From Candidatus Saccharimonadota bacterium (GTDB lineage: Bacteria; Patescibacteriota; Saccharimonadia; Saccharimonadales; UBA4665), in contig OY970322.1 in assembly GCA_963716945.1 (NCBI GenBank), forward strand, positions 900,001 through 932,000: a stretch of 32,000 bases of DNA, read 5' to 3'. Below, piece after piece: positions 2 to 28,468 of this stretch; the stretch's first letter is position 1; each line of letters starts with the position of its first letter. The notes below the pieces were generated by a model. That model had not been told where the DNA came from and did not search any database. It saw only the letters and a program-made list of their open reading frames with translations. The position numbers were made by a program, and so were the translations under genes.

Positions 2-400
2 TATATCATATGAACGGAAAGCCCGGAAGCTGATGATGTGCTGCAGGTAGTCGCGGGCCGGGAAATCGCCGTAAGACAGATGCGTGGTTCTGCCCAGGTC
101 CTCGAAGCCGCTGACGGCGTCGACGGCCCGCTGGTTGTATTTGTCGTAGTTCTCTCGAATGTCGTCGTCTGCGCTAAGCAACGGCTCGTAAGTATCGCCG
201 ACCTCCTCTTTGGTCTTGCCCGCCAGGACATCCGGCACCCAGGCATCGTCATAGGTGTGGTAGCGGACGGCGTCCTTGAGCGTGCCCGGCTTCCGGGACA
301 TGCCCGGCGGCATGGGGATGTCCCACTGGTCGTCGGTTATTCGTTTGATGGACTTTTGAAGCTCCCGGTTAGACGTGATAAATAATTCTTGGATTGTCAT
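2..400 (-). CDS. TIGR03086/DinB-like (mycothiol maleylpyruvate isomerase N-terminal-like) metal-binding protein; first 133 codons only, gene continues beyond the left window edge
   Basis: Absent from the supplied track because there is no stop inside the window. Own translation from ATG 400..398 gives MTIQELFITSNRELQKSIKRITDDQWDIPMPPGMSRKPGTLKDAVRYHTYDDAWVPDVLAGKTKEEVGDTYEPLL...GRTTHLSYGDFPARDYLQHIISFRAFRSYDI, open to position 2. AAGGGGG Shine-Dalgarno lies 7 nt upstream. The DDQW..P.P, WVPDVLAGKTxEEVGD and HLSYGDFP blocks match my memory of the TIGR03086 family. Confidence 0.6.
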   Translation of the reverse strand, partial: MTIQELFITSNRELQKSIKRITDDQWDIPMPPGMSRKPGTLKDAVRYHTYDDAWVPDVLAGKTKEEVGDTYEPLLSADDDIRENYDKYNQRAVDAVSGFEDLGRTTHLSYGDFPARDYLQHIISFRAFRSYDI

Positions 401-494
401 CGTGCTGCCCCCTTACGTTATTTATTAATTCTACACCCGCCGAGCTAGAATCGAGACGCAAAAAATCGGCAAGTCCAAAGCCGGGCCACAGGGC

Positions 495-524
495 TTGCCC
501 GGACTTGCAACGACCGTGTATAAT
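495..524 (+). promoter_or_regulatory. Candidate sigma-70-type promoter of the marR-like operon
   Basis: TTGCCC (495-500), 18-nt spacer, TATAAT (519-524) preceded directly by TG. It lies 40 nt upstream of the ATG at 565. Confidence 0.45.
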
Positions 525-546
525 AATAGTTAGTTACCTAACTATT
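525..546. promoter_or_regulatory. Palindromic operator candidate (MarR autoregulation site)
   Basis: Perfect 9-bp inverted repeat AATAGTTAG-ttac-CTAACTATT lies immediately downstream of the -10 and 19 nt upstream of the marR-like start. This position is typical of MarR-family autorepression. Confidence 0.5.
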
Positions 547-564
547 TAACAATCCAGGGGTAGT

Positions 565-990
565 ATGAACGGCGGGGAAGAACTGCTTTTGTCGACGCTA
601 ATCAAGCGTTGCGGCCGGGCGATTGACGATGACATTAACCGGATGCTCAAACAGCATTCGATTGCCCGGAGCCAATACCGGGCGCTCTACTATGTCGCCC
701 GTTACGGCGAGCCGGCGCAATCGGACCTGATAAAGGTCATGCGCGTTCAGCCCTCGACCCTGACTTCTATCATTGACGGGCTGGTGCGCAAAGGCTGGCT
801 GGTCCGTGTCAAAGACAAGCACGACAAGCGGATCAACCGGTTGAGGCTAACCTCCGAGGGAACCAAAACATTCGGGCAAATCCCCGACCCGGCGCGCAAG
901 CTCCAGACACTGATTCTCAAGACTCTGGACAAGCAGGAAGCCCGGCAATTAGGCGTATCCCTCGAGAAAATTATCAACCAACTAAGCTAA
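565..990 (+). CDS. MarR-family transcriptional regulator
   Basis: 141 aa. Winged-helix MarR pattern: SQYRALYYVARYGEPAQSDLIKVMRVQPSTLTSIIDGLVRKGWLVRVKDKHDKRINRLRLTSEG. It is followed 10 nt later by the next gene. Confidence 0.85.
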   Translation: MNGGEELLLSTLIKRCGRAIDDDINRMLKQHSIARSQYRALYYVARYGEPAQSDLIKVMRVQPSTLTSIIDGLVRKGWLVRVKDKHDKRINRLRLTSEGTKTFGQIPDPARKLQTLILKTLDKQEARQLGVSLEKIINQLS

Positions 991-1000
991 AGGAGGCATC

Positions 1001-1552
1001 ATGGCAAAACAAGACGGCAAAACGGCATTACTGGTAATGGACGTGCAGCCCGGCATAGTCGAGCGGCTCGACAACCCGGACGAATACCTGGCAAAGGTCA
1101 GGGCGGCCGTGGCTGCGGCCCGCCAGAGCCGGATACCGGTCATTTACGTGGTGGTCGGCTTCCGCCCTGGCCTGCCGGAAATCAATCCGCGCAACAAATC
1201 CTTCGGCGCTATCAAGCAAACCGTCCGGCCGTCCATGATCAACCCGCAGCCGGCCCTGCCGGTCGAAGATGGCGATATCGTCGTGGTCAAGCGGCGGGTC
1301 AGCGCCTTCAGCGGCAGCGACCTGGAAGTCGTGCTGCGCGGCCAGGGCGTCAGCCACCTGGTACTGACCGGCATCGCGACCAGCGGCGTCGTGCTGTCAA
1401 CGGTCCGGGAGGCGGCCGACAAGGATTTCCAGCTGACCGTACTGTCGGACCTGTGCGCCGATTTCGATCCCGAAGTCAATGCCGTGCTGCTGGAAAAAGT
1501 CTTCCCCAGGCAAGCCGAGGTCATCAGCAGCGAGGAATGGCCGAATGTTTAA
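1001..1552 (+). CDS. Isochorismatase-fold (cysteine hydrolase superfamily) protein
   Basis: 183 aa. AAGGAGG SD. LLVMDVQ (Asp), VVKRRVSAFSGSDLEVVLRGQG (Lys) and HLVLTGIATSGVVLSTVREA blocks are typical of the fold. The expected nucleophile Cys position reads Val (see findings). Confidence 0.75.
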   Translation: MAKQDGKTALLVMDVQPGIVERLDNPDEYLAKVRAAVAAARQSRIPVIYVVVGFRPGLPEINPRNKSFGAIKQTVRPSMINPQPALPVEDGDIVVVKRRVSAFSGSDLEVVLRGQGVSHLVLTGIATSGVVLSTVREAADKDFQLTVLSDLCADFDPEVNAVLLEKVFPRQAEVISSEEWPNV

Positions 1553-3242
1553 CCGGCTCCGCGAACACGGCCAGCTGAGCAGCCCCAACTATAAATGGGT
1601 AGCCTTGGCCAATACCACGCTGGGCGTCGTTATGGCGACGATTGATTCGTCGATTATGCTGATCGCTCTGCCCGATATTTTTCGCGGCATCAAGCTCAAC
1701 CCGCTGCTGCCGGGCAACAGTTTTTACCTGTTATGGATGATATTGAGCTTCCTGATTGTCAGTAGCGTGCTGGTGGTCAGCTTCGGCCGGCTGGGCGACA
1801 TGTACGGCCGGGTCAAGATGTATACGCTCGGCTTCTTTATATATACCGTATCCTCGATATTATTGACGGTTACCTGGATGCACGGCTCGTCGGCAGCATT
1901 GTATCTGGTTCTTATGCGGGTAGTCCAAGGTGTCGGAGCGGCTTTCATTATTGCCAACTCGGCGGCCATATTGACCGATGCCTTCCCGGCCAGCCAGCGC
2001 GGCATGGCGCTGGGCATCAATAACGTGGCCGGCATTAGCGGCGTGTTCATCGGTCTGGTCCTGGGCGGCTTGCTGGGGCCGATTGATTGGCGGCTGATTT
2101 TCCTGGTGTCGGTGCCGTTCGGCATAATCGGTACCCTCTGGGCTTATTACATGCTGGAAGACCCGAACGATACGACGGGCGGGGGCAGCATTGATTGGCT
2201 CGGCAATATCACCTTTTCGCTGGGTCTGATCCTGGTCATGATAGGTATCACTTACGGTATTGAACCGCACGGCGTCCACACTATGGGCTGGACCAGCCCG
2301 GCCGTCCTGGCGGAGCTTATCGGCGGCGGGGTGTTGCTGGCGGCTTTCGTCTACATCGAGAATATCGTCAAGGAACCGATGTTCCGGCTGCACCTGTTCA
2401 AGATCAGGGCTTTCACGGCCGGGGTGCTATCGAGTTTCTTATCGTCCGTCGCCAGAGGCGGCTTGATGTTCATGCTGATTATCTGGCTGCAGGGCATCTG
2501 GCTGCCGCTGCATGGCTACAGCTTCGACCGGACCCCGCTGTGGGCCGGCATATTCATGCTGCCCTTAACGGCCGGCTTCCTGGTTGCCGGACCGGTTTCG
2601 GGGATCCTGTCGGACAAGTTCGGCTCGCGGCCGTTTGCCACGGCCGGCATGATCGGTTCGGCGGCTTCGTTCATCCTGCTTGAACTGCTGCCGATAGACT
2701 TTAACTATTTGGCTTTCGCCTTTATCCTGCTGCTGATGGGCATCTCGATGGGCTGTTTCGCTTCGCCCAACCGCGTAGGTGTCATGAATAGCCTGCCGCC
2801 GGAAGAGCGCGGCGCCGGCGGCGGTATGAACGCCACCTTTCAGAACTCGGCCCAGGTGCTGTCAATCGGGATTTTCTTCACGCTGATGATCGTCGGGCTG
2901 GCGGCCAAGCTGCCCAGCCATTTATACGCCGGCCTGACCAAGTACGGCGTGGCGCCGGCGGTAGCGGCAAGCGTGTCCCACTTGCCGCCGGTGTCGGTGC
3001 TGTTCGCGGCTTTCCTAGGCTACAATCCGGTCCAGCAACTGCTTAAACCTCAGGTGTTCCAGTCCATACCGAAGCACGACCAGACCGTGTTGACCGGACA
3101 CGCCTTTTTCCCGCAACTCATCAGCCAGCCGTTTTCATCCGGCTTGCGCGAAGCTTTCGCCTTCGCCATTATCGCCTGCTTGATCGCGGCGGCGGCTTCC
3201 TGGTTCCGCGGCAAAAAGTACGTCCACGGCGACAACGATTAG
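1545..3242 (+). CDS. MFS transporter, DHA2 (EmrB/QacA-like, ~14 TM) family
   Basis: Track ORF 1479-3242. The likely true start is ATG 1545 (MFNRLREHG...), overlapping the upstream stop as ATGTTTAA. VALANTTLGVVMATIDSSIMLIALPDI and GRLGDMYGRVKMY motifs are present, and the protein is hydrophobic throughout. Confidence 0.85.
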   Translation: MFNRLREHGQLSSPNYKWVALANTTLGVVMATIDSSIMLIALPDIFRGIKLNPLLPGNSFYLLWMILSFLIVSSVLVVSFGRLGDMYGRVKMYTLGFFIYTVSSILLTVTWMHGSSAALYLVLMRVVQGVGAAFIIANSAAILTDAFPASQRGMALGINNVAGISGVFIGLVLGGLLGPIDWRLIFLVSVPFGIIGTLWAYYMLEDPNDTTGGGSIDWLGNITFSLGLILVMIGITYGIEPHGVHTMGWTSPAVLAELIGGGVLLAAFVYIENIVKEPMFRLHLFKIRAFTAGVLSSFLSSVARGGLMFMLIIWLQGIWLPLHGYSFDRTPLWAGIFMLPLTAGFLVAGPVSGILSDKFGSRPFATAGMIGSAASFILLELLPIDFNYLAFAFILLLMGISMGCFASPNRVGVMNSLPPEERGAGGGMNATFQNSAQVLSIGIFFTLMIVGLAAKLPSHLYAGLTKYGVAPAVAASVSHLPPVSVLFAAFLGYNPVQQLLKPQVFQSIPKHDQTVLTGHAFFPQLISQPFSSGLREAFAFAIIACLIAAAASWFRGKKYVHGDND

Positions 3243-3276
3243 CCGGCCGCGGCCCCTACAAACGCCAAGCTTATAT

Positions 3277-3305
3277 TTGACCAAACGTAGTTTTTGTGGT
3301 ACTTT
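3277..3305 (+). promoter_or_regulatory. Candidate promoter TTGACC-17-TACTTT
   Basis: TTGACC 3277-3282, 17-nt spacer, TGgTACTTT with hexamer at 3300-3305. It ends 11 nt before ATG 3317, implying a very short leader with no SD. The same architecture recurs at 10731-10759. Confidence 0.4.
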
Positions 3306-3316
3306 AACTGCAATTT

Positions 3317-3964
3317 ATGAGTAATCCGTATTTCGATGCCTGCCGGCAAGCCGCGGCTAATATAGACGTCCCGGCTTTGTCCGAACTTGAGCCGGCGGCC
3401 GCCATAGGCCGGGGCAGTTTCTTCGCTTTTTCCCCGCTGGGCCAGCTTAGCCTGGGCGGGCCTAAACCGGTTTATGCCGGCCTTAAAAGGCCTAACATCG
3501 CGCTCTGGCGGCCGATAGTCCGCCTGGAGCAAGAACTCACCTTCATCGCTACAGTGATTGACCACAGCCCCGAATTCCAGGCTCTGGTGCCGGCATTTAT
3601 GGGTTTGGTCGCCATCGAGGGCGAGGAAGAGGCGACGGCTATACTAACCGAGGACGCGTCGGAAGGCGGACGGCACGCGGTCGTCTCGAGGCCGGCCAGC
3701 CCGGATGTGCGCCGCATGCTGATGAAACCGTTTGAGCAGCCGGCCGGTAATGATGCCGAGCTAAACCGGGTAAGGTGCAATCGTATTTTGGCATTTAACG
3801 TTAGTGGCCGGCAGCGGCTGCTTGATTTTACGCCGTTTCCGGTTAACAACGTTAGCGGTCATGCCTCATACACCGCCAACTCGTTGCCGGCCATGGACCT
3901 GGCGGCCGAGACGACGATACGGGTACCGGCGGATTCGCCTTTGGGCCGGCACCTCGTCCGGTAA
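3317..3964 (+). CDS. Hypothetical protein (no recognisable family)
   Basis: 215-aa ORF with moderately GC3-rich codons (about two thirds in the first 70 codons by hand count) and its own promoter-like element. No motif recognised. Confidence 0.45.
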   Translation: MSNPYFDACRQAAANIDVPALSELEPAAAIGRGSFFAFSPLGQLSLGGPKPVYAGLKRPNIALWRPIVRLEQELTFIATVIDHSPEFQALVPAFMGLVAIEGEEEATAILTEDASEGGRHAVVSRPASPDVRRMLMKPFEQPAGNDAELNRVRCNRILAFNVSGRQRLLDFTPFPVNNVSGHASYTANSLPAMDLAAETTIRVPADSPLGRHLVR

Positions 3965-4023
3965 TCCGTTTGTCAGGCGGCCGGAACGGACGGGTCACCA
4001 GCCGCTTATGCTATATTGAAAAC

Positions 4024-4350
4024 ATGCATTATCTGGGCCTACGGCATAAGTACGAACGCCGGCAAGGTTTGAAGAAACAGCGCGAGACGCCTTATACGGT
4101 TTTCCTGGATAAGCTGACTTTTGTCGTCGGCGTGATCGGCCCTTTCACCGTCTTGCCGCAGATTTACAGCATCTTCTCATCGCGGTCGGCGGCCGGCGTT
4201 TCGCTAACTACCTGGGTCCTGATATTTATCGTGACTTTCCCCTGGATTTTGTACGGTATCGCCCACAAGGAGAAAAACATCATCGTTAGCTTTATCCTAT
4301 GGGAAATGGTTAACCTGGCAGTGGTTATCGGCGTGCTTATGTATGGCTGA
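4024..4350 (+). CDS. PQ-loop / SemiSWEET-like 3-TM membrane protein
   Basis: Track ORF 3970-4350. The likely start is ATG 4024 (MHYLGLRHKY...). FVVGVIGPFTVLPQIYSIFSSRSAAGVSLTTWVLIFIVTFPWILYGI carries the PQ motif and the W..YG pattern of SemiSWEETs. Confidence 0.6.
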   Translation: MHYLGLRHKYERRQGLKKQRETPYTVFLDKLTFVVGVIGPFTVLPQIYSIFSSRSAAGVSLTTWVLIFIVTFPWILYGIAHKEKNIIVSFILWEMVNLAVVIGVLMYG

Positions 4351-4379
4351 GAATGAGGAAGCTCTACCGGGCAGGGGGC

Positions 4380-4529
4380 CTATTGGCCGTATTTTTGGCC
4401 GCCATAACCGCTAGGGGCGCTGTCATGGTTCGTCTTGGAGTCGCCTGTCAGGATACCGATAATCGTGGAGAAGCCGAACAACGAGACGATGCTCATGCCG
4501 ATAGTCACCAGAAACTGCTGGCGCGTCAT
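4380..4529 (-). CDS. Small single-TM protein (49 aa)
   Basis: Track ORF 4380-4619 begins at a GTG. Codons 4530-4619 are A/T-rich at third positions, whereas from ATG 4529 (MTRQQFLVTIGMSIVSLFGFSTIIGILTGDSKTNHDSAPSGYGGQKYGQ) GC3 is high like other genes here. A possible own promoter is TTGACA (4626-4621), 17 nt, TAAGCT (4603-4598). The antisense ORF 4353-4553 has poorer codon bias. Confidence 0.45.
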   Translation of the reverse strand: MTRQQFLVTIGMSIVSLFGFSTIIGILTGDSKTNHDSAPSGYGGQKYGQ

Positions 4530-4637
4530 TTCCCGATTGAGAACTTGCTCTAGTTTAGACACCTGTACCCCGCCTGTCCACGTTCTTTTCAATATTAAGC
4601 TTACGCTTCGGCCCGTCACCTGTCAATCTGTAAAACA

Positions 4638-5255
4638 TCAGTTGGCCACGGCCGTGTAGGTAACTTGGCTGGCGTAAGCGCCGCTAGGCACGCTGGTGTC
4701 GGCGCAAACTCCGTACCAGACCGTCGTCGTGACCGCCGGGTCGGCCGCCGTCGAGGTGCTGGCGAGCGTATCGGCCGTTTGGTTGCTGGCTTTGATGCCG
4801 GCAAATAGCGTGCCGCTGGGGCTGACATTGGACTGGGCGGTTGTCGGACCGGCACCGAAACTGCCCAAGCCGTCCACCCGGTAACCCCAGGCATTGCCGG
4901 ACAAAGCCGCCGGGCTGGCCAGAGTGCCGCTGCCGGCACTAATCGAAGAGCTGCCGTTGATCAGGCCGGTATTGGTACTATTGTCAGCCAGGGTCAGCGT
5001 ATAGCCGTTGGTATCATCGGTCATAACTGAAGCGGTATCGCTTTGGATGGTGCATTTGCCGCCGGCGGCCGGCGTTATGTTAAGGCTGACATTGCCGCTG
5101 CTAACGAGAGTGATACTGCAGGCCGAGCCGTAAACGCAGGAATTGTAGCTGCCGCTGCCATAAGTACCGGTAGCGTAGGCCAAGACTCTGGGGCTGACCC
5201 AGGCCGCGGCGGCGGTTAAAGCCAGAACCGAAAGCCAGACCAGACGCCTGGCCAT
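4638..5255 (-). CDS. Secreted Thr/Ser/Gly-rich beta-rich surface subunit, paralogue 1 (WxL-like / SCPU-like)
   Basis: 205 aa with a signal peptide (MARRLVWLSVLALTAAAAWV). It shares ...SDTASV.TDD.NGYTLTLA...NAWGYRVDGLG.FGAGPT...TVWYGV.ADTS.PSGAY...VTYTAVAN-COOH with 6178-6774 and 6929-7567. Its start overlaps the upstream stop (TAATG at 5253-5257). Confidence 0.6.
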   Translation of the reverse strand: MARRLVWLSVLALTAAAAWVSPRVLAYATGTYGSGSYNSCVYGSACSITLVSSGNVSLNITPAAGGKCTIQSDTASVMTDDTNGYTLTLADNSTNTGLINGSSSISAGSGTLASPAALSGNAWGYRVDGLGSFGAGPTTAQSNVSPSGTLFAGIKASNQTADTLASTSTAADPAVTTTVWYGVCADTSVPSGAYASQVTYTAVAN

Positions 5256-6166
5256 TATGGTTTAGCTTTTTTGGCTTTGGCCGACCGGCGCCGATAGGCA
5301 TAGCGTAAGACGCCCAGTAGGATTATCACGAGCAGGATGGCGCCCAGGACCAGGCGCACCGTTTGCGACATCACGAACACCCATTTGGTCGGCAGAGTTT
5401 TGTGCTGGTTAAGGAAGCTGACCGTACCGGTTACCTTGAAAATGCCGATGGCCGGCGCTTTGTTCCAGCTGATGGTTACCCGGCGGACGGTTTGGGGCAG
5501 GACCTCTTTGGTCGTGTTTAAGCTGAGTTTCGAGCTGCCGAAAGCGTCCCGGACGTTAACCTGAATGGTGGCGGGGTAATGGATGGTGCCGTCGTTTTCC
5601 AGCCGCAGGACGGCCGTTAATGGCGGTTTCTGGAAAAGGTCGGATTGCCAGCTGGCTACTTCGCCTTTTCTGGTGACCGGGCCGGCGGCTTGAATGTAGA
5701 ATATTTCGCCGACGCGTTCGTTAAGGGTTATGCCGTTGGCGCTCTTGGGGTATTGGGTCTGGGCGAAAACAGCCGCGTAATAGCCGCCAGGGGGCGTGTC
5801 GGCGGGCATATTGATAGCGTAATTAACGGTAATCGATTGGCCGGGATTAACGTGACCCCCGGGCGTCGAAAACGAGAACCAGCTCTTAACGTTCGGGGCG
5901 GTCGGCAGAAACGTAAAATCCGGCGTGTAGTCTTCGCCCTTGACCCGGTACGGAGTGCTATAAATCTGAAAACTGTACGGCGCGGCGCCCTGGTTCAGCA
6001 CTTGCAGCGAACCTTTATATATCGAACCGGGCCTAATCGTCGGGCTGGCGGAAGTCGGCGTCATAGTTATGGCCTGCGGGGCCGCGTGGGCCGATCCGCC
6101 GCCCAACGAAAGCGCTCCGAACAAGACCAGGCCCGCGACAATTGGCAACCGGTAGAGGCGTCTCAT
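5255..6166 (-). CDS. Two-domain surface protein with C-terminal membrane anchor (DUF916/DUF3324, WxL-interacting-protein-like)
   Basis: 303 aa. Signal peptide MRRLYRLPIVAGLVLFGALSLGGGSAHA. The first half is ...IRPGSIYKGSLQVLNQGAAPYSFQIYS...VKSWFSF...VNPGQSITVNYAINMPADTPPGGYYAAVF. The second half is ...LRLENDGTIHYPATIQVNV...VLPQTVRRVTISW. A C-terminal TM helix (LVLGAILLVIILLGVL) precedes a basic tail RYAYRRRSAKAKKAKP. This layout matches CscA/DufA-type proteins as I remember them. Confidence 0.6.
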   Translation of the reverse strand: MRRLYRLPIVAGLVLFGALSLGGGSAHAAPQAITMTPTSASPTIRPGSIYKGSLQVLNQGAAPYSFQIYSTPYRVKGEDYTPDFTFLPTAPNVKSWFSFSTPGGHVNPGQSITVNYAINMPADTPPGGYYAAVFAQTQYPKSANGITLNERVGEIFYIQAAGPVTRKGEVASWQSDLFQKPPLTAVLRLENDGTIHYPATIQVNVRDAFGSSKLSLNTTKEVLPQTVRRVTISWNKAPAIGIFKVTGTVSFLNQHKTLPTKWVFVMSQTVRLVLGAILLVIILLGVLRYAYRRRSAKAKKAKP

Positions 6167-6177
6167 GCTTATTTAAT

Positions 6178-6774
6178 TCAGTTCGCGGTAGCAGTATACG
6201 TAACACTATTGGTGTAGGTGCCCGAAGGCTGGCTGGTGTTGGCGGCCACGCCGTACCAGATGGTCGTCGTATCGCTGGAAGCGACGCCCGAAGTCGTCTT
6301 CAGGGTGTTGGGTGAAGCCGTGGCCGGCACGGCGGCGAATTTGATGCTGGCGCTGATGGCGGCGCTGTTCTGGCCCGAAGTGGGACCGGCGCCGAAGCCG
6401 CCGATGCCGTCAACCCGGTAGCCCCAGGTGTTGGCGGCCATGACTACCGGCGTGGTTTGGGTACCGCTAGAAGCTGGGATGGTGTCGGAGCCGGATACTA
6501 GCGTGGAGCCGGCGCCGGTTTCGGCGAGCTGCAAAGTATAGCCGGATGAGTCATTAGTGCTGACAGTCGCCGTGTCGCTGGCGATGGTCTGGGCACCGGA
6601 GCCGGTCGGCACGACGTTGACGTTAACCGTGCCGTTAGTCGTGAAGAGGCTTATGACAGGGCTAATTGTTGAACTGATGGTCGTCGATGCGGTCAAGGCC
6701 GACACGGCGGCCGAAGTACCGAACAGCAACAGGATTGGCAGCACTAGCAGAGATGATAGTTTTAATTTTTTCAA
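6178..6774 (-). CDS. Secreted Thr/Ser/Gly-rich surface subunit, paralogue 2 (WxL-like / SCPU-like)
   Basis: 198 aa. TTG start at 6774 with a strong GGAGGA SD 6 nt upstream. Signal peptide MKKLKLSSLLVLPILLLFGTSAAVSALTA. It has the family C-terminus TIWYGVAANTSQPSGTYTNSVTYTATAN. Confidence 0.65.
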   Translation of the reverse strand: MKKLKLSSLLVLPILLLFGTSAAVSALTASTTISSTISPVISLFTTNGTVNVNVVPTGSGAQTIASDTATVSTNDSSGYTLQLAETGAGSTLVSGSDTIPASSGTQTTPVVMAANTWGYRVDGIGGFGAGPTSGQNSAAISASIKFAAVPATASPNTLKTTSGVASSDTTTIWYGVAANTSQPSGTYTNSVTYTATAN

Positions 6775-6803
6775 GTAAACTCCTCCAAGAACCCCTAATG
6801 GCT

Positions 6804-6826
6804 ATTTATGCTTGCTATATTAGCAT
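6804..6826. promoter_or_regulatory. Palindrome overlapping the predicted transcription start (operator candidate)
   Basis: TTATGCT-tgctatatt-AGCATAA is a 7-bp inverted repeat. The same right arm can alternatively pair with the inner TGCTA (6811-6815 with 6819-23) because TGCT is tandemly duplicated. Confidence 0.4.
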
Positions 6827-6829
6827 AAC

Positions 6830-6858
6830 GAATTACAAAATTAAGGCTTAATTAAATC
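6830..6858 (-). promoter_or_regulatory. Candidate internal promoter for paralogue 2 and downstream genes
   Basis: Read on the minus strand: TTGATT (6858-6853), 17 nt, TGTAAT (6835-6830). It sits inside the 154-bp AT-rich spacer between paralogues 3 and 2. Confidence 0.4.
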
Positions 6859-6928
6859 AAAAGGCTGTGTATAAAGCGGCGATTTACCCTACCCACCCTT
6901 ATAAAATTGTTGCAAAATTACCTACGCG

Positions 6929-7567
6929 TTAATTAGCGGTGGCAGTATAAGTGACGCTGTTGGTGTAAGTACCGGTCGGCTGGCTGGTGTTGGCGGCCAC
7001 GCCGTACCAGACAGTCGTTGTATCGTTAGACGCCGTACCGGAAGTAGTCTTAATGGTGTCAGGCGAGCCGCTGGCCGGCACGGCGGCAAACTTGGCGCTG
7101 CCGATAGCGGCACTGCTCTGGCCCGAGGTGGGACCGGCGCCGAAGCCGCCGACGCCGTCAACCCGGTAGCCCCAGGTGTTGGCGGCCACGACCGCCGGGC
7201 TGGCCTGGGAACCTGAGGAGGCCGGAATGGTATTGCCGCCCGATACGAGATTGGAGCTGGCGCCGGTTTCGGCCAGGTTAAGCGTATAGCCTGAGGAGTC
7301 GCTGGTGCTGACGGTAACGGTGTCGCTGGCAATCGTCTGAGCGCCCGAGCCGGTCGGCACGACGTTGACGTCAACCGTGCCGTTGCTTGTCAGCAAACTG
7401 ATAACCGGACTAAGAGTGGAGCTGATGGTCGTAGCGGCGGTCAAGGCCGACACGGCGGCCGAAGTCCCCAGCGTGGCCAATAGAATAACGCCGGCCAGCA
7501 GCGGCAAGCGCAGCTGGCGTACCAGCGGTTCAAGACGGATAGATCTGTTCGTTTGTTGATTTTTCAT
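6929..7567 (-). CDS. Secreted Thr/Ser/Gly-rich surface subunit, paralogue 3 (WxL-like / SCPU-like)
   Basis: 212 aa. It has an extended basic N-terminus, then LLAGVILLATLGTSAAVSALTA. It is very similar to paralogue 2, including identical 34- and 35-nt DNA tracts. C-terminus TVWYGVAANTSQPTGTYTNSVTYTATAN. Confidence 0.65.
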   Translation of the reverse strand: MKNQQTNRSIRLEPLVRQLRLPLLAGVILLATLGTSAAVSALTAATTISSTLSPVISLLTSNGTVDVNVVPTGSGAQTIASDTVTVSTSDSSGYTLNLAETGASSNLVSGGNTIPASSGSQASPAVVAANTWGYRVDGVGGFGAGPTSGQSSAAIGSAKFAAVPASGSPDTIKTTSGTASNDTTTVWYGVAANTSQPTGTYTNSVTYTATAN

Positions 7568-7763
7568 GTTTTTTTAATTTAATTATCAATATTGTATAGG
7601 CAAGGAGCTCAAATACACAAGCTTTTTAAATACTTTAGCCGCCGGGGTTTGGGGAACGGCTCCATGCAGGTTGTCGCCCATATAAAGCTCATGTTATGAT
7701 TTTAACCAGTGGCTCGTGGAGACGGGACTTGAGATGTTTATTAATACCTAACGGAGGGGTCTT

Positions 7764-8177
7764 ATGACGGCGCGCCTACCGACGCTTGGCGGTGATGCTA
7801 ACAACTGGGGCAGTGTTCTGAACGACTACCTCCAGCAAGCGTTGGCCGCTGACGGTACCTTGGTTACAAGCAGCACCAACTCTTACACCGGTTTGGCCAA
7901 CACCAACCTGGCCAGCGGCAGCAAGCCCGGTATCGTTCAGTTGGCAGGTGATCTCGGCAGCACGGCGGTGTCGCCGACGGTGACCGGCCTGCAAGGCAAC
8001 GCCGTTTCGGCGACCGCGCCGACTGACGGCTATGTTTTGACCTGGAGCGCCGCCGGCAGCCAGTGGCAGCCGGCGGCCGCCAGCGGCGGCGGGGGCGGCT
8101 TCACGGGCGACCTTGACGGCGGCAACGCTACTTCGGCATACGGCGGCACTTCCTCGATAGACGGAGGCACATCCTAG
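7764..8177 (+). CDS. Phage tail-fibre-like small protein (glycine-rich C-terminus)
   Basis: 137 aa with a GGAGGGG SD. LPTLGGDANNWGSVLNDYL and GIVQLAGDLGSTAVSPTVTGLQG...PTDGYVLTW...QWQP are blocks I associate with phage tail-fibre/minor-tail N-terminal modules. The stop is 1 nt before the next start. Confidence 0.5.
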   Translation: MTARLPTLGGDANNWGSVLNDYLQQALAADGTLVTSSTNSYTGLANTNLASGSKPGIVQLAGDLGSTAVSPTVTGLQGNAVSATAPTDGYVLTWSAAGSQWQPAAASGGGGGFTGDLDGGNATSAYGGTSSIDGGTS

Positions 8178-8178
8178 G

Positions 8179-9213
8179 ATGTCGACGACGATTCAGTTCA
8201 GGCGTGACACGGCCGCTAACTGGACTGCGGCCAATCCGACTTTGGCCCAAGGCGAAGTCGGACTGGAAACCGATACCAGTTCTTATAAAATCGGTGACGG
8301 CGCGACCTCTTGGGCCAGCCTGAGCTATAACCAGCTGGCACCCGAAATTACTAGCCTGTTGATGGACGGCCAGACTAACGACCCGTCAGCGCCCAGTTCG
8401 GGCGACCTGACCGTTTATAGCAAAGCTATCGGCGGCCGGATGATGTTGAAGCAAATCGGGCCCAGCGGGCTGGCGACGGCCCTGCAGCCTTTCCTGGCCC
8501 GCAACAAGGTCGGTTACTGGGATCCGCCCGGCAACGCCACGACCGTACCCGGCGTTTTCGGCTACACGGCACCGACGGTGCTGGGCACGGCCACGGCCAG
8601 GAACATCGCAACGACTAACTTGTTTAACCGGATGCGGCGGCTGGGTTTCGTGTCTTCGGCCACGGCCGGCAACCTGAGCGGCGCCTATTTGACGGTGGCC
8701 CAGGTCACGGTTGGCGACGGTTCCGGTAACGGCGGTTTCTACAAGATCTGCCGTTTCGGTTGCAGCGACGCGGCGACGGTGGCCGGCGCCCGGCAGTTTG
8801 TCGGCGTCAGCTCAACGGTATCGGCACCTACTAATGTCGAGCCCTCGACCTTGACTAACTCCATCGGGGTCGGCCATGGCGCGTCCGACACCAACCTCAA
8901 GATATTTTATGGCGGTTCAACGGCCCAGACACCGATCAGCCTGGGCGCAAACTTCCCTGTTAACACGTTGAGTACCGATGTTTATGAGCTGGCTCTATTC
9001 GCGCCGACCAATTCCAACAATACCGTTTACTACGAGGTTACCCGGATTAATACCGGCAATGTCGCTACCGGCACTCTAACCGGTACGGCCGGTACGGCCC
9101 TGCCGTCTTCGACGACCCTTTTGGCCTACCAGCGGGCTTGGCGTAGCAACAACGCCACCGCCAAGGCCGTCGGGCTGGATATTATGAGCGACTACATCGA
9201 GACGGATAACTAG
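8179..9213 (+). CDS. Tail-fibre/receptor-binding-like protein, tandem paralogue A (Mtd/HylP-type N-terminal module)
   Basis: 344 aa. The N-terminus IQFRRDTAANWTAANPTLAQGEVGLETDTSSYKIGDGATSWASLSY matches the conserved N-terminal module of phage hyaluronidase/major-tropism-determinant-type fibres. The remainder is not recognised. It abuts the next gene (TAG then ATG). Confidence 0.6.
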   Translation: MSTTIQFRRDTAANWTAANPTLAQGEVGLETDTSSYKIGDGATSWASLSYNQLAPEITSLLMDGQTNDPSAPSSGDLTVYSKAIGGRMMLKQIGPSGLATALQPFLARNKVGYWDPPGNATTVPGVFGYTAPTVLGTATARNIATTNLFNRMRRLGFVSSATAGNLSGAYLTVAQVTVGDGSGNGGFYKICRFGCSDAATVAGARQFVGVSSTVSAPTNVEPSTLTNSIGVGHGASDTNLKIFYGGSTAQTPISLGANFPVNTLSTDVYELALFAPTNSNNTVYYEVTRINTGNVATGTLTGTAGTALPSSTTLLAYQRAWRSNNATAKAVGLDIMSDYIETDN

Positions 9214-10245
9214 ATGGCCGTACAGATTCAGTGGCGGCGTGATACGGCGGCTAACTGGACCGCTAACAATTCGGTGCTGGCCCAAGGCGAACCGGGGTTC
9301 GAGACGGATACCGGAGCTTACAAAATTGGTGATGGTTCGACTGCCTGGAGCTCTTTGTCTTACGGCAATTATTCTTCCAACCCGATCGCCGCCATGTTCG
9401 CCGACCAAGCCAGCGGCAACGATCCGGCCGCGCCGGCGGCCGGCAAACTGCTGGTTTACGGCAAAACCATTGCCGGCCGCATGATGCTGAAACAAATCGA
9501 CCCGTCCGGCCAAGCCACGGCCATGCAGCCTTTCCTGGCCCGCAACAAGGTCGGTTACTGGATTCCGCCCGGTAATGCCACGACCGTGCCGGAAGTCTTC
9601 GGCTACACCGCGCCGACCGCCATGGGTACGGCCACCGCGGCCAACGTGGCGACGACCAACTTGTTCAACAGGATGCGCCGCTTGAGCTACGTTTCGTCTA
9701 CGTCCGCCGACTCCTATTGCGGCCAACGGGTCGCCGTAGCCCAGGTTTGCATAGATTCCGGCTTTTACAAGATTGTCCGCTTCGGCATTAGCGACGCTAC
9801 CCTGGCCTCGCCGGTCAACATGTTCATCGGCATGAGCGCTACCACGGCCGCGCCGTCAGGCGGCGCCGAACCGTCGACGCTGCTTAACAGTATCGGCGTC
9901 GGCCACGCTTCTACCGACACCAACCTCAAGATATTTTACGGCGGCACGACCGCCCAGACGCCGATTGACCTAGGGTCTAATTTCCCGATCAACACGACCA
10001 AGGTCGACGCCTACGAGCTGGCGCTGTTTTCGCCGCCCGGCGCCGATAACAACGTCTATTACGAGGTTACCCGGATTAATACCGGCAATGTCGCTACCGG
10101 TGTCCTGACGGGTGATACCGGCGGCGTGGAGCTGCCAGCCCCGTTAACGCTTCTGGGCTACGGTTACCACTGGCGCTGCAACTTGGGTACCGGCGTCGCC
10201 GTCAGCCTGGATATCATGAGCGACTATATCGAAACCGACAACTAG
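9214..10245 (+). CDS. Tail-fibre/receptor-binding-like protein, tandem paralogue B
   Basis: 343 aa and collinear with paralogue A. It has the same N-module (IQWRRDTAANWTANNSVLAQGEPGFETDTGAYKIGDGSTAWSSLSY) and the same C-terminal end (LDIMSDYIETDN). Divergent patches lie in between. Confidence 0.6.
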   Translation: MAVQIQWRRDTAANWTANNSVLAQGEPGFETDTGAYKIGDGSTAWSSLSYGNYSSNPIAAMFADQASGNDPAAPAAGKLLVYGKTIAGRMMLKQIDPSGQATAMQPFLARNKVGYWIPPGNATTVPEVFGYTAPTAMGTATAANVATTNLFNRMRRLSYVSSTSADSYCGQRVAVAQVCIDSGFYKIVRFGISDATLASPVNMFIGMSATTAAPSGGAEPSTLLNSIGVGHASTDTNLKIFYGGTTAQTPIDLGSNFPINTTKVDAYELALFSPPGADNNVYYEVTRINTGNVATGVLTGDTGGVELPAPLTLLGYGYHWRCNLGTGVAVSLDIMSDYIETDN

Positions 10246-10658
10246 AGGCCGGCCGCGCGGGCATAATTCTTGAGCCGCAGCCAGCCGGCGATAGCTGCCG
10301 GTTTTGTGGCGGTGACCGGCGCCGACTGGTAGATAACACCGTCGTGCCGGGCATCGACATGGGCCATTATGGTTTTGTACTGGCTTAATATGGCCGGGGT
10401 CAATGTTATGGGTGCCGAATTGAACCTGCCCTTATAAACAAGCGGCATGACATTCTCCGGACTGTTGCTGAGGACCTCCCGTATCCGGCCATGGCTATCA
10501 ACCAAGATGTAGCGTGCCGGAGCGATGGATGCCGAAATGATAACGCTACCGCCCGCAGTCAGAGGGGCCGCTAAGACCGTCCCGGGCCACAAGACGGCCA
10601 AAAGACAGATCACCACTGGTCCGGCGAAAGCCGGCAACCTCCTGAAAAAGTTCGACAT
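10242..10658 (-). CDS. Hypothetical exported or N-terminally anchored protein
   Basis: 138 aa. The N-terminal hydrophobic segment FAGPVVICLLAVLWPGTVLAAP is followed by a beta-rich region. Its stop overlaps the fibre B stop as CTAG. No family recognised. Confidence 0.5.
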   Translation of the reverse strand: MSNFFRRLPAFAGPVVICLLAVLWPGTVLAAPLTAGGSVIISASIAPARYILVDSHGRIREVLSNSPENVMPLVYKGRFNSAPITLTPAILSQYKTIMAHVDARHDGVIYQSAPVTATKPAAIAGWLRLKNYARAAGL

Positions 10659-10663
10659 AGGTC

Positions 10664-10685
10664 AAATAATAGTAAACTATTATTT
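10664..10685. promoter_or_regulatory. Perfect 10-bp inverted repeat (operator or 5-prime hairpin candidate)
   Basis: AAATAATAGT-aa-ACTATTATTT lies 6 nt upstream of the minus-strand start at 10658. Confidence 0.4.
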
Positions 10686-10730
10686 ACTTAGGGTAAATAA
10701 AGTTTCATAGCATAAGCTTTATCGCCGGTT

Positions 10731-10759
10731 TTGACTCTTCCCTATAGGTATGTTACTTT
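10731..10759 (+). promoter_or_regulatory. Candidate promoter TTGACT-17-TACTTT
   Basis: TTGACT 10731-10736, 17-nt spacer, TGtTACTTT with hexamer at 10754-10759. GGGAG SD precedes ATG 10785. Confidence 0.4.
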
Positions 10760-10784
10760 TACTGGGTAAAAGAGCTGGGAGAAT

Positions 10785-11369
10785 ATGTCGGAGCTGCGAA
10801 AAACATTGGCTGCATCAGGCGCGGTTATCGCCACCGGCGGCGCCTTGTTATTGTCCGGCTGCGGCAGCGGCGAATCGCCGGCAGATAAATACCAGGCCGG
10901 CCAGGCCCGCTATAGCCGCATCAGCCGCGTCGCCCGAAAGTTTGTCCGGGCCATGACCCATGAGGCCGAAGCGCCTGAGGACAGTTGGGTTCCTTCATCC
11001 ATATCATGTACCCGCGCCGTAAAGGTCGGCTACCTTGGCAACAGCCAAGTCGAAGAACTTAAAACGCCGCGCCGGCACCTGCGCCCCGGCGACGAGTGCG
11101 TAATTACGGTCGGCGCCGATAAGCAGATTGAAGCAACAATATATATTGACAAGCCGGAAGCGGCCTTCGACGGCAATATCATAGAAGACATCAGCGTGAC
11201 CGGCCTGGCCGGCTGCAGCGTAGAATTCACCAACACCCAGCCGCCCGAGGGCTGGTTAGTCTGGTATCCTTACAGCTCTTCCGGTAGCCCGACTAATGTC
11301 GGGCAGGCTGAGCGATTAGATAACGACGGTATAGGTTGTCTCGATACCATCATGTCGGTCCTGCTCTAA
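10785..11369 (+). CDS. Putative lipoprotein, unknown function
   Basis: 194 aa. Lipobox-like signal ...GGALLLSGCGSGESP. No family recognised. Confidence 0.6.
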   Translation: MSELRKTLAASGAVIATGGALLLSGCGSGESPADKYQAGQARYSRISRVARKFVRAMTHEAEAPEDSWVPSSISCTRAVKVGYLGNSQVEELKTPRRHLRPGDECVITVGADKQIEATIYIDKPEAAFDGNIIEDISVTGLAGCSVEFTNTQPPEGWLVWYPYSSSGSPTNVGQAERLDNDGIGCLDTIMSVLL

Positions 11370-11758
11370 GATTGCGCGGGTGCGTCCTGCAGTACGGCCA
11401 GGATGTTGCCGGCCGGGTCCTTGAACCAGGCGATGTCCGGCCCGCGGTTGGCGGCTAGTCCGCGGGCGATGCCGTCCTCGCCGGTCATACTGTCATAATG
11501 CTCGAATGCCACGCCCCTGGCTTTGAGTTCCTTGACGGCTTCGTCGATGTCGTCGACTGCGAAGTTCAGGATAGTGAAGCCGGCCGGGCGGTGGTCCGGC
11601 TTGCCATAAACGAAGACCGTGCCGCCATTGGGTAATTGCAGTTTAAGGCCCATCTCGCTGCTGTTGGTTTCGAGTTCCAGGACTTCAGTATAGAATTTTT
11701 CGGCGGCCGCGAGATCATCTACCGAGAAACCGCTGAACGCCGCTCTTACTTTGAACAT
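11366..11758 (-). CDS. VOC (glyoxalase/bleomycin-resistance/dioxygenase) family protein
   Basis: 130 aa. FSVDDLAAAEKFYTEVLELE...FTILNFAVDDIDEAVKELKARGVAFE...WFKDPAGNILAVLQ is typical of the VOC fold. GAGGGAGGGTGG SD. Confidence 0.8.
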   Translation of the reverse strand: MFKVRAAFSGFSVDDLAAAEKFYTEVLELETNSSEMGLKLQLPNGGTVFVYGKPDHRPAGFTILNFAVDDIDEAVKELKARGVAFEHYDSMTGEDGIARGLAANRGPDIAWFKDPAGNILAVLQDAPAQS

Positions 11759-11796
11759 GCCACCCTCCCTCTTAATATTCCGATATTCCAGGCTGA

Positions 11797-11805
11797 ATTA
11801 TAACA
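11797..11805 (-). promoter_or_regulatory. Extended -10 element (TGTTATAAT) upstream of the VOC gene
   Basis: The minus strand reads TGTTATAAT (TG-n-TATAAT), 38 nt upstream of ATG 11758. Confidence 0.45.
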
Positions 11806-11821
11806 GCTTCCTGTGAGCGCT

Positions 11822-12589
11822 TCATGAAGCCGCCGGCCGGCGTTTCCGGGCGGCCTTGGGCGGTTGAGGCGGCAGTTTATCTATCTCGTGGGCCAAAGGC
11901 GCGACCTTGAAGCCTAAGACCAGGGCGAAAGTCACGGCGAAGCCGCACAGCACCGACGGGAAACCGACGACATTAAAGCTGCGCAAAATCACGACCCCGA
12001 ACGACGGCAGCAAGAAGGCCAGGTTGCCGGTCTTGAACCACCACAAGCTGCGCTTAACGGTTTCGGATGCGGCCCTTTGTTGCTGCCGGTCGGCCACGAC
12101 CAGCGAAACCAGAATCACGCCGAAGTAGTAAATCACGTACAGCCAGTTAGTGATAATCGGGCTGGTGAAAATAATGTAATTGCCGCCGCAAATGGCCGTC
12201 AGCACGCCCGGGACCAGGACGTAGTATAGGATATAGGGCACGGCCAGGATATAGCAAGCCTTGACGACTTTGCGTTCACGGTAGCCGGCCAGCCGGGAAG
12301 CCAAGTCGACACTGATCGGCGGCAGCAGCGTAATCGCGAAGTAGCCGAGCCGGGCCCAGTCGGTGCTGGCGCTGGCCACGCCGGTACAGATCATGAATTC
12401 GCACAGTTGGAAAACCGCCAGGAAAACCAGCAGGCCGACAATCGGCAGCTGCAGCCGGCGGTAACCGTAGCGGATCAGAACCATCAGCATCAAGGCGACC
12501 TCTATCACGCACGTCGCAATCATAACCGGCGGCGTGAAGCAACCGAAAGTCGTGCCGCCGTCCCCGCCCGGCGATAGCAGTCTATTCAT
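11822..12589 (-). CDS. Polytopic membrane protein, unknown function
   Basis: The track ORF extends to a TTG at 12640. ATG 12589 (MNRLLSPGG...) sits exactly 6 nt downstream of TATAGT (12601-12596), suggesting a leaderless mRNA. About 7 hydrophobic segments and a basic Pro-rich C-terminal tail. Confidence 0.55.
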   Translation of the reverse strand: MNRLLSPGGDGGTTFGCFTPPVMIATCVIEVALMLMVLIRYGYRRLQLPIVGLLVFLAVFQLCEFMICTGVASASTDWARLGYFAITLLPPISVDLASRLAGYRERKVVKACYILAVPYILYYVLVPGVLTAICGGNYIIFTSPIITNWLYVIYYFGVILVSLVVADRQQQRAASETVKRSLWWFKTGNLAFLLPSFGVVILRSFNVVGFPSVLCGFAVTFALVLGFKVAPLAHEIDKLPPQPPKAARKRRPAAS

Positions 12590-12652
12590 AAGCAAACTAT
12601 AGCGCCTGCAGCCGCCGGAACGCAAATTGGCGGCTGCCAAAGTATACTTAAC

Positions 12653-13264
12653 ATGATGGCTAATAAAACCGTGCGTTATTTGTTGCTGGGCCAGTTCAGC
12701 CTGTTTGGCTTTCTCCTGATTTGTTTGGCATTAATTCCCCATTTCCTCTTCGAATCTAACGAGGGCGGCGTCAGCAACTACGGCCTGTACGCCAGGACGG
12801 TCGTACCGTATACGCTGGCTTTCGGTCTCTGCGGGTCGCTGACGCTGCGGTCAGCCCTTGTTATGCCTAAGCAAACGCCGTCTTATAAAGCCCTGCGGGG
12901 CTGGCTGGCCGCCTTGGGCATTTTGCTAATCGCCGTGCTGGTCTCGACATACCCTTATAAGGTCAACGATACCTTGAATGCCATCCACGTTGATGCCGGC
13001 ACGGCACTGGCGTTCCTGGAACTGGGGCTGGGCGCCTGGTTCGCGCTGGGCCTGGTGCGCGACCTGAAAAACGGGGCGTTATTCGCGCTGCAGCTAGCCG
13101 GCTTCGGCCTCGGCGTCCTGACCCACTTCGGCGCCATCCACATCCTGTTCGTCACCGAGCTGCTGACGAGCCTGGCGTTCGGCACTATCATGGTGCGGAC
13201 CGTGGACGGCCTAACTTCGGCCGGCCGGCCTGGCGATTTTAAGCGTAAGCAATTGCAAAATTGA
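12653..13264 (+). CDS. Polytopic membrane protein, unknown function
   Basis: 203 aa with about 6 hydrophobic segments. The tandem ATGATG start lies 4 or 7 nt after TATACT (12643-12648), so the real start may be 12656 on a leaderless mRNA. Confidence 0.6.
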   Translation: MMANKTVRYLLLGQFSLFGFLLICLALIPHFLFESNEGGVSNYGLYARTVVPYTLAFGLCGSLTLRSALVMPKQTPSYKALRGWLAALGILLIAVLVSTYPYKVNDTLNAIHVDAGTALAFLELGLGAWFALGLVRDLKNGALFALQLAGFGLGVLTHFGAIHILFVTELLTSLAFGTIMVRTVDGLTSAGRPGDFKRKQLQN

Positions 13265-13288
13265 ATATTTAGAAGTATAGTACCCTGA

Positions 13289-14227: not shown

Positions 14228-14228
14228 C

Positions 14229-28406: not shown

Positions 28407-28468
28407 CGCTTGAGGCCGGCTATTTTTCTTAAGCTCTATTTAAGAATAAGGCGTGTAGGATTTAGAAT

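Follow-up and report, generated by a model that had tools for sequence, protein, structure and literature searches.

A conserved Saccharimonadia locus of secreted subunits and a membrane-anchored WxLIP homologue resembles a stripped-down relative of the Pam pilus

Which surface structure might be encoded by a cluster of small secreted proteins and a membrane-anchored partner in a bacterium without an outer membrane? The question was raised by positions 4380 to 7567 of a 32,000-nucleotide stretch of DNA (contig OY970322.1 of assembly GCA_963716945.1, positions 900,001 to 932,000 of the forward strand), which is called the window here. A first-pass annotation, made from the sequence alone, had read this locus either as a divergent branch of the WxL system outside Firmicutes or as a new assembly system of secreted subunits and an anchored partner. 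WxL/csc clusters consist of WxL proteins, a WxL-interacting protein (WxLIP, DUF916/DUF3324) and a small LPXTG protein (Siezen 2006; Hassan & Williamson 2023, PMC10599100). The host did lie outside Firmicutes, as a member of the candidate phyla radiation (CPR, Patescibacteria) in the class Saccharimonadia. A pilus of another kind, the Pam pilus, has been described in Candidatus Mycosynbacter amalyticus (Saccharimonadia) by Troman et al. (bioRxiv 10.64898/2026.03.03.709456). With a confidence somewhat above even, we favour the explanation that the locus lets a monoderm CPR bacterium build, by beta-strand complementation, a Sec-dependent surface fibre without an usher, as a minimal relative of the Pam pilus.

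Open reading frame (ORF) calling and comparison with homologues gave an operon-like locus of five co-oriented genes on the minus strand. Two subunits of the upstream or shaft type are encoded at 6929-7567 (subunit 1, 212 aa; mature form about 171 aa and 16.5 kDa, without Cys) and 6178-6774 (subunit 2, 198 aa; mature form about 172 aa and 16.8 kDa). They are followed by the membrane-anchored partner at 5255-6166 (303 aa; mature form about 30 kDa, isoelectric point (pI) 10), a subunit of the downstream or tip type at 4638-5255 (subunit 3, 205 aa; mature form about 178 aa) and a small single-pass membrane protein at 4380-4562 (about 60 aa from a GTG at 4562, in an ORF open to 4619). The four larger ORFs had been placed at the same positions by the first-pass annotation, as had the TAATG at 5255, in which the partner gene and the subunit 3 gene overlap stop to start; by this overlap, the subunit 3 gene is translationally coupled to the partner gene. 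Subunit 2 starts with a TTG preceded by the ribosome-binding site GGAGGAG. Its 198-aa translation from this codon was absent as an exact match from a collection of 15 billion proteins in which the neighbouring proteins were present, and the start-codon annotation was inconsistent across the locus.

The partner was modelled with AlphaFold2 (AF2) at a mean confidence (pLDDT) of 88.9. The model showed an N-terminal signal helix, two beta-sandwich domains (residues 33-160 and 168-266), both immunoglobulin (Ig)-like, and a C-terminal transmembrane (TM) helix (268-300) followed by a basic tail, in agreement with the signal peptide, two beta-rich halves, TM helix and basic tail read earlier from the sequence. 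In a Foldseek search with this model, the top PDB match was the Enterococcus faecium WxLIP 9i1y_A (E 2.2e-12, TM-scores 0.43/0.47), and 9i25_C, "WxLIP bound to long WxL", was matched as well. RbmA came next with an E of 3e-10, yet with a TM-score of 0.25 and a root-mean-square deviation (rmsd) of 14.5, whereas WxLIP and the chaperones reached 0.47-0.58. Further matches were CfaA, CsuC, FimC, Caf1M, PapD, SafB and DraB (E 1e-9 to 1e-7, target TM-scores 0.5-0.58), and the structural matches covered every class of chaperone-usher chaperone.

The homology of the partner was also examined with hhalign, using a partner-family alignment of Saccharimonadia only (A1) and one broadened with remote CPR members (A3). 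The broad alignment scored 97.3% against a Paenibacillus WxLIP (E 1.8e-11, 220 columns spanning both domains) and 98.7% against an Arthrobacter DUF916 protein (E 3e-16), and A1 scored 94.5% against the latter; A3 against E. coli FimC gave 1.2%. A Pfam scan of the five window proteins found no WxL, DUF916, DUF3324 or SCPU at E<=10, so that none of the families named in the first-pass annotation was directly visible in them, and the partner itself had neither a Pfam match at that limit nor an NCBIfam match. Among 39 partner-family members, PF06030 (WxLIP_PGBD) was weakly matched by 13, remote relatives that scored 15-19 bits (cutoff 27.3) and whose matches all fell on the first Ig domain, at profile positions 20-117 of 121. 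PapD-type families were not among the 25 Pfam families most matched across these 39 relatives. Moreover, a tblastn search of 7.3 Gb of plasmids with one remote partner member returned only seven records at E<=10, which included four genes annotated as DUF916 and one unannotated Embleya ORF (E 3e-8). The match in Paenibacillus urinalis sits in a genuine WxL cluster, which encodes a WxLIP (Pfam PGBD, 33.4 bits) and a small WxL protein (30.1 bits), both above cutoff, and a 1048-aa protein with RCC1 and WxL domains. On the hhalign and Foldseek results, the partner is a true homologue of WxLIP (DUF916/DUF3324) and has only the fold in common with classical pilus chaperones. The DUF916/DUF3324 link proposed for it at first reading was thus borne out.

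A word-indexed search found 158 homologues of the partner. Close relatives were also present in Actinobacteria, at 5674-6738 of Embleya sp. NZ_CP108785.1 (79.7 bits to the CPR profile) and at 5035-6687 of the Arthrobacter plasmid pA58H3, and both adjoin weakly WxL-like ORFs; the Embleya region carries no annotated feature in the PLSDB table. Since Actinobacteria are known hosts of Saccharibacteria, horizontal transfer between an actinobacterial host and its epibiont is conceivable.

The three proteins of about 200 aa were paralogues, subunit 1 being 78% and subunit 3 41% identical to subunit 2, and their alignment confirmed the common motif string noted in the first-pass annotation, which runs through to the C-terminal ...VTYTATAN. 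The genes of subunits 1 and 2 were 79% identical as DNA, with a longest identical run of 35 nt; gene conversion between them was rejected, and these values point to an old duplication. After the predicted AxA cleavage sites, the mature subunits had masses of 16.5-17.3 kDa, a pI of about 4.1 and 57-59% Thr, Ser, Gly and Ala. Their general layout was a signal peptide, a strand of about 12 residues and a single domain, without an N-terminal domain. In subunit 1, the signal peptide ends in ...AVSA, directly before LTAATTISSTLSPVISL, and a pilin-like beta domain ending in VTYTATAN follows. The mature N-terminus of subunit 2 reads L-T-A-S-T-T-I-S-S-T-I-S and is an amphipathic candidate donor strand. 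Subunit 3 had the same beta domain with four conserved Cys, and a Gly/Tyr/Cys-rich N-terminus (TYGSGSYNSCVYGSACSIT) replaced the amphipathic strand. The C-terminal strand of the subunits carried an invariant Gly at -14 and alternating Tyr/Val/Tyr. The AF2 monomer model of subunit 2 had a pLDDT of 78.7, with residues 21-36 below 50.

The NCBIfam model NF058581 (CPR_Pam_pilin_C) was matched by all three subunits: subunit 2 with an E of 1.1e-5 and 25.6 bits, subunit 1 with an E of 4e-4 (profile 15-147 of 148) and subunit 3 with an E of about 3e-3. The matches were near full-length, at about 15-147 of the 148 profile positions. No WxLIP, WxL, PapD-type or Pam entry was found in PDB sequence searches with single sequences and profiles of subunit and partner, in PDB copies that do not include the PamA/B structures (25PZ/25QA), and Pfam and NCBIfam scans detected no S-layer-type domain or repeat in the subunits. 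For subunit 2, the word-indexed search gave 1139 homologues at 70-93% identity, and an exhaustive profile search gave 1146 relatives of the family with two architectures. The first comprises domain-only proteins of about 200 aa; the second consists of longer proteins (343-1773 aa) that end in the domain, after RCC1/PD40 propellers, FN3, TIG and other modules. Two-domain and multi-domain relatives occur in other genomes. The long relatives matched CPR_Pam_pilin_C at up to 40 bits (E 3e-10). Among 73 subunit-family members, SCPU, the archaic Csu-type pilin family, was weakly matched by six (best E 0.0043), which is in line with the SCPU/Csu resemblance suggested in the first-pass annotation, and WxL was not among the 25 most-matched Pfam families. 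The subunits were extremely conserved and, contig by contig, consistently exceeded the partner in this respect: identities to the window proteins at 6178-6774 and 5255-6166, respectively, were, for example, 87 vs 74%, 85 vs 70%, 83 vs 62% and 77 vs 50%.

Two orthologue groups of subunits were distinguished: an upstream group of 41 sequences, which includes the window proteins at 6929-7567 and 6178-6774, and a downstream group of 34 sequences, which includes that at 4638-5255. No Cys was present in 36/41 upstream sequences, and exactly four conserved Cys were present in 31/34 downstream sequences. The mature N-terminus of the upstream group was (L/A)TASTTISSVISPVISL, conserved at 80-90%, and its first twelve residues alternated between apolar and Ser/Thr positions; the downstream group had TYGSGTYGSCQYGxxCSIT instead of this strand. 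The upstream N-terminal segment was disordered in the AF2 monomer model, and in the long subunit relatives it is found ahead of the C-terminal domain. In PamA and PamB, the linker strand donated to the neighbouring subunit occupies the matching place.

The arrangement was compared in 60 loci encoding partner relatives, 38 of Saccharimonadia type and 22 of other CPR by sequence relatedness, on which the families were mapped with hidden Markov models (HMMs) built from the alignments of this analysis. The gene order (upstream subunit or subunits, partner, divergent subunit, small TM protein) was the same in about 30 independent Saccharimonadia loci. With adjacency defined as a subunit gene, found by a diverse subunit HMM, within 1.5 kb of the partner gene on the same strand, the pair was adjacent in 38/38 Saccharimonadia and 21/22 other-CPR loci (59/60 overall), in agreement with the co-occurrence anticipated at first reading. 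The recurrence of the gene order in about 30 independent loci puts the arrangement far beyond chance. Across CPR, the genes for secreted subunits and anchored partner form an obligate pair. Almost all named relatives in the two families came from Candidatus Saccharimonadales/Saccharibacteria. Most records of the 60 loci carry CPR lineage labels, and about nine are labelled Gammaproteobacteria, Chlamydiae or Verrucomicrobiia (the metagenome-assembled loci L005, L011, L043-L045, L047, L053, L055 and L060); these labels are probably binning or taxonomy errors. Such a locus goes unmentioned in the Southlakia transposon-sequencing (Tn-seq) paper.

The small membrane protein is a conserved fifth gene and a genuine member of the locus. 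Its HMM found 30 matches in the related loci, namely 29 homologues and the window's own protein, and most of them lie directly downstream of subunit 3. The first-pass annotation had suggested a fifth member here, which held, and a length of 49 aa, which probably did not. The homologues are about 58 aa long, begin with MSKL(D/E) and align from about residue 20 of the window ORF; from their length and start, the window protein probably begins at the GTG at 4562 (60 aa) rather than at 4529 (49 aa) or 4619 (79 aa). The gene caller used for Logan chose the 49-aa start. The protein consists of MSKLEQVLNREMTRQQFL, a TM helix and a tail with ...SGYGGQKYGQ. A Tat-like T-R-x-x-F-L motif was present, which across the homologues is a degenerate (T/S)-R-(K/R/Q)-x-F-L ahead of the TM helix, and the tail of the homologues has a conserved P-G-Y-G-x-x-x-Y-G-P. 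Its match to NCBIfam NF038009 ("twin-arginine translocation system-associated protein") was sub-threshold (E 1e-12, 48 bits, cutoff 100). In its richness in YG, the tail is similar to the N-terminus of the Cys-containing subunit 3.

Do the subunits belong to the WxL family? The comparison with WxL used shallow and diverse profiles, local, global and Viterbi alignment, and column shuffles as controls. In a Pfam-positive WxL protein of Paenibacillus, GWAY and TYTA were the collinear counterparts of the subunit positions G-Y-T-L and T-Y-T-A, at posterior confidences of up to 0.7 (SGYTL on GGWAY, forced) and 0.9 within an overall alignment that was not significant. The C-terminal strand scored 25.6 against a profile of the Paenibacillus WxL subfamily, and 30 column shuffles gave 11.2 +- 1.7 with a maximum of 14.3. 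This Pfam-positive protein itself ends in ...TYTATS, which makes Tyr for Trp a natural variant within WxL and agrees with the Tyr-for-Trp reading of the two motifs in the first-pass annotation. As evidence for homology of the whole domain, the comparison was rejected (hhalign 10.7%, 15 columns, not significant), with only the two motif islands aligned. Judged from sequence profiles, the two motif correspondences appear to be real and in register, and domain-level homology to WxL is not demonstrated. The WxL reading of the locus was supported for the partner, a WxLIP homologue, and not supported for the subunits, which had no Pfam WxL match, the above hhalign score and no significant Foldseek match.

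How might these proteins work together? In the fibre model, all five products would be exported or inserted via Sec, as the signal peptides and TM helices seen in their sequences suggest. The partner would capture each subunit of about 17 kDa at the outer face of the membrane and lend a beta-strand to its incomplete Ig-like domain; we infer this from the WxLIP homology and the chaperone-like fold. Candidate strands are the conserved R151-V-G-E-I-F-Y-I-Q after the flexible loop 138-150 and the conserved N-terminal Q-A-I-T-M-T-P. The two Cys-free upstream subunits would then polymerise head to tail into a shaft, in which the conserved, amphipathic start of each mature protein (LTASTTISSTIS) would be the strand donated to the subunit before it. 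Subunit 3 with its four Cys may be the distal tip, as initiator or adhesin, comparable to PamT; having no donor strand, it could only accept one and is placed at the distal tip for this reason. The TM helix of the partner may keep the fibre attached to the cell, and a single partner would do the jobs that are split among PamC, PamD and PamR in the published Pam model. The 60-aa membrane protein would be a conserved accessory. The biological role is likely to be contact with, or adhesion to, a host bacterium.

Several observations weigh against a fibre. All subunit scores to CPR_Pam_pilin_C, at 17.7-25.6 bits, lie below the NCBI cutoff of 55, and the subunit model had no significant Foldseek match (best E 0.046): jelly-roll capsids and the PapGII pilin domain appeared with low probability, the latter as the best pilin-like match with an E of 0.16. 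In addition, a conservation of the subunits exceeding that of the partner is atypical for exposed adhesive pilins, and at the sequence level the partner is demonstrably related to WxLIP, for whose clients polymerisation is not known. The same homology, which extends across both domains and has WxLIP as the top structural match, leads to the main alternative, a rather unlikely one: a WxL-type, non-filamentous complex, in which the acidic subunits are held singly or as small oligomers by the basic, anchored, WxLIP-like partner, through strand insertion and/or cell-wall binding, as an adhesion platform of the kind proposed for Firmicute WxL/csc. The composition of the locus, at least two small subunits and one partner, fits the published definition of a WxL cluster, the small domain-only proteins and the large ones with N-terminal RCC1/FN3/propeller modules parallel small and large WxL proteins, and the two collinear motifs, with a C-terminal strand score above all 30 shuffles, point the same way. 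However, the subunits lack a Pfam WxL match and significant overall profile-profile homology, they match the Pam pilin C-domain model instead, and both the LPXTG protein and the sortase are missing from the window. Moreover, the conserved, disordered N-terminal strand, which is absent in one paralogue, would have no obvious role outside a polymer.

The RbmA match of the partner, together with the extreme conservation, the 58% Thr/Ser/Gly/Ala and the lack of Cys in the subunits, could also fit a glycosylated sheet, coat or matrix of Thr/Ser-rich subunits, for which the partner would be a pure membrane tether like RbmA or PamR; the RbmA-like tether of the Pam preprint (32.8 kDa) has the same size as the partner. 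We regard such a coat as improbable. The RbmA match (E 3e-10) is poor in TM-score and rmsd compared with those of WxLIP and the chaperones, the subunits have no S-layer-type domain or repeat, and nothing points to a two-dimensional lattice. Finally, curated annotation, Pfam matches and names in public records are all absent for these proteins, as would be expected if unrelated hypothetical secreted proteins were juxtaposed by chance without forming a functional system. This has a negligible probability and is refuted by synteny, with the order kept in about 30 loci and adjacency in 59/60, by the translational coupling of partner and subunit 3, and by the large sizes of the families (158; 1139; 1146). 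A surface fibre of the Pam kind remains the preferred explanation.

CPR bacteria make up a very large share of bacterial diversity and live attached to host cells. To our knowledge, their attachment machinery is almost unknown, the first CPR pilus other than type IV having been described only in 2026, and we know of no clear molecular mechanism for WxL clusters since 2006, in enterococci, listeriae or lactobacilli. The present locus is widespread and very strongly conserved in Saccharimonadia, with more than 1100 family members, and is missed by Pfam as well as by the Pam model of NCBI. Since the published pam operon is far more complex, the locus lends itself, as a minimal system, to studying how fibres may be built without an usher by a membrane-anchored chaperone. 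The WxLIP homology of the partner further suggests a relationship between WxL clusters and Pam-type pili as usher-less monoderm systems. As a tentative view, which we hold to be possible rather than probable, one ancient family of usher-less surface assembly in monoderm cells would have branched into the WxL/csc clusters (Firmicutes, Actinobacteria) and, in CPR, the Pam-type pili, with the Saccharimonadia locus, whose single-domain subunits retain WxL-like motifs beside a WxLIP homologue, as a minimal intermediate form. In such a family, an anchored two-Ig protein (WxLIP or PamC/PamD/PamR) would present or polymerise small subunits by beta-strand complementation, and WxL proteins themselves would be assembled, possibly polymerised, by donor-strand complementation. 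The WxLIP link gives testable predictions on strand complementation and possible polymerisation for both fields. In the literature searched, no paper connected CPR bacteria to WxL or DUF916, and the Pam preprint is silent on WxL.

The neighbours of the locus included a major facilitator superfamily (MFS) transporter and tail-fibre-like genes. Three tail-fibre-like genes lie divergent to it on the plus strand (7764-8177, 8179-9213 and 9214-10245), and two of them are tandem paralogues with the phage Mtd_N domain (major tropism determinant N-terminal; E 5e-16 and 5e-17); none of the three proteins has an obvious signal peptide. One or two Mtd_N genes were found divergently upstream in about 20/38 Saccharimonadia loci. 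The intergenic region between the two directions (7568-7763) is presumed to be the promoter region for both the operon and the Mtd_N genes. A spacer of 154 nt between subunit genes 1 and 2 (6775-6928) is AT-rich and ends in a strong Shine-Dalgarno sequence; it is possibly an internal promoter or processing region. A scan for consensus promoters and terminators gave counts equal to the shuffled expectation, with a single promoter-like match at 7671-7700 (plus strand) within the divergent region. The rest of the window contains transporters and small-molecule enzymes; genes for a sortase, a signal peptidase, an usher, an ATP synthase or an LPXTG protein are absent from it. Sortase families had zero matches within the window, no ORF had a plausible LPXTG sorting signal (a single pattern match lacked a downstream anchor), and no usher-like ORF or large beta-barrel lay inside or adjoining the locus; the absence of sortase and LPXTG protein had been stated in the first-pass annotation as well.

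Further genes of the window deserve mention. An ORF of 215 aa at 3317-3964 (plus strand), between the MFS transporter and a PQ-loop gene, had no Pfam or NCBIfam match, and the same ORF was called as a gene beside the locus on an independent Logan contig. At 27258-31178 (plus strand), a cluster encodes a myo-inositol-1-phosphate synthase-like protein, a flavin mononucleotide (FMN)-binding protein, an ApbE flavin transferase and a fusion of an NQR/Rnf-like protein with an NAD-binding oxidoreductase domain; such content, related to redox and membrane lipids, is atypical for minimal CPR genomes. Outside the window, one of the 60 loci (L028; OY970378.1, a CPR chromosome of 1.19 Mb, positions 16-16535) holds a larger operon with three partner paralogues, a 364-aa protein matching CPR_Pam_pilin_C (35 bits), a 217-aa short subunit like those of the window, a 546-aa pilin-like protein that matched TafC, a family of the haloarchaeal Tat-fimbriae, with 42.7 bits, an IS1595 transposase and a giant protein of 2312 aa. 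It looks like a composite of a short-subunit module and a pam-like module.

How does the locus compare with known systems? Compared with WxL/csc clusters, the partner has the architecture of a WxLIP (signal peptide, two Ig domains and TM helix), is basic like the WxLIPs of L. plantarum and is the single partner of at least two small subunits. The domain of the subunits is found both by itself in small proteins and at the C-terminus of large ones, comparable to the RCC1-WxL protein of Paenibacillus, and the motifs D-x-x-G-[WY]-x-L and T-[WY]-T-[AL] line up collinearly, within an overall alignment that is not significant. In contrast, the window subunits fail Pfam WxL (PF13731) and have Tyr in place of Trp in both motifs, the partner lies below Pfam detection for DUF916/DUF3324, the fifth gene encodes a 60-aa single-pass membrane protein rather than an LPXTG protein with its sortase, and the locus belongs to a CPR bacterium instead of a Firmicute.

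The likeness to chaperone-usher pili lies in the partner, whose fold matches CfaA, CsuC, FimC, Caf1M, PapD, SafB and DraB, and in subunits of pilin size with an N-terminal amphipathic strand, the Gly at -14, an alternating C-terminal strand and weak SCPU matches in 6/73 family members. However, there is neither an usher nor an outer membrane, and the partner is anchored in the membrane, not soluble in the periplasm. Membership in the classical chaperone-usher class was rejected at the level of sequence (hhalign 1.2% for FimC and below 1% for FimA/F/G/I), the likeness being structural only. Fibres built by strand donation without a chaperone are known as well. In the haloarchaeal Tat (twin-arginine translocation)-fimbriae (TafA/C/E/F), donation of an N-terminal strand joins small Ig-like subunits, the tip or initiator has two domains, and the terminal subunit is anchored in the membrane (PMC11821415). 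These fimbriae, TasA, archaeal threads and bundling pili follow the concept proposed here for the window locus, but they lack a chaperone-like partner with two Ig domains, and they often use a dedicated signal peptidase, of which there is none in the window. None of the window proteins showed homology to Taf proteins, and the TafC lead was dropped, the match belonging to the long protein in L028.

The pam operon encodes PamB (38.7 kDa), PamE (38.6 kDa), PamA (55.3 kDa), a tip pilin of 25.6 kDa, and three anchored two-domain paralogues (PamC, PamD and the tether PamR), in a CPR cell without an outer membrane, and tail-fibre-like and MFS genes have been reported around such operons (bioRxiv 10.64898/2026.03.03.709456). 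The window locus differs in that its subunits are single-domain proteins of about 17 kDa in the mature form, without the N-terminal beta-sandwich domain of Pam pilins, and reach 18-26 bits against the NCBIfam cutoff of 55. Furthermore, it has one anchored partner instead of three and an extra conserved 60-aa membrane protein, and within the window no ATP synthase genes lie near it. On the other hand, the two systems belong to the same superphylum and class, carry Sec signal peptides on all components and have no usher and no outer membrane. The subunit domain matches CPR_Pam_pilin_C along the whole profile, although below threshold, and a conserved strand lies immediately N-terminal to it; subunit 3 lacks the donor strand and is single-domain, like PamT. 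The two Ig-like domains and C-terminal TM helix of the partner correspond, by description, to the architecture of PamC, PamD and PamR, and AF2 and Foldseek gave the partner the fold of a PapD/FimC-like chaperone with a C-terminal TM helix, as in Pam. Tail-fibre-like and MFS genes lie near the window locus too, and by sequence relatedness the 60 loci are restricted to CPR, with a conserved operon context. Taken together, the locus looks like a stripped-down relative of the CPR Pam pilus.

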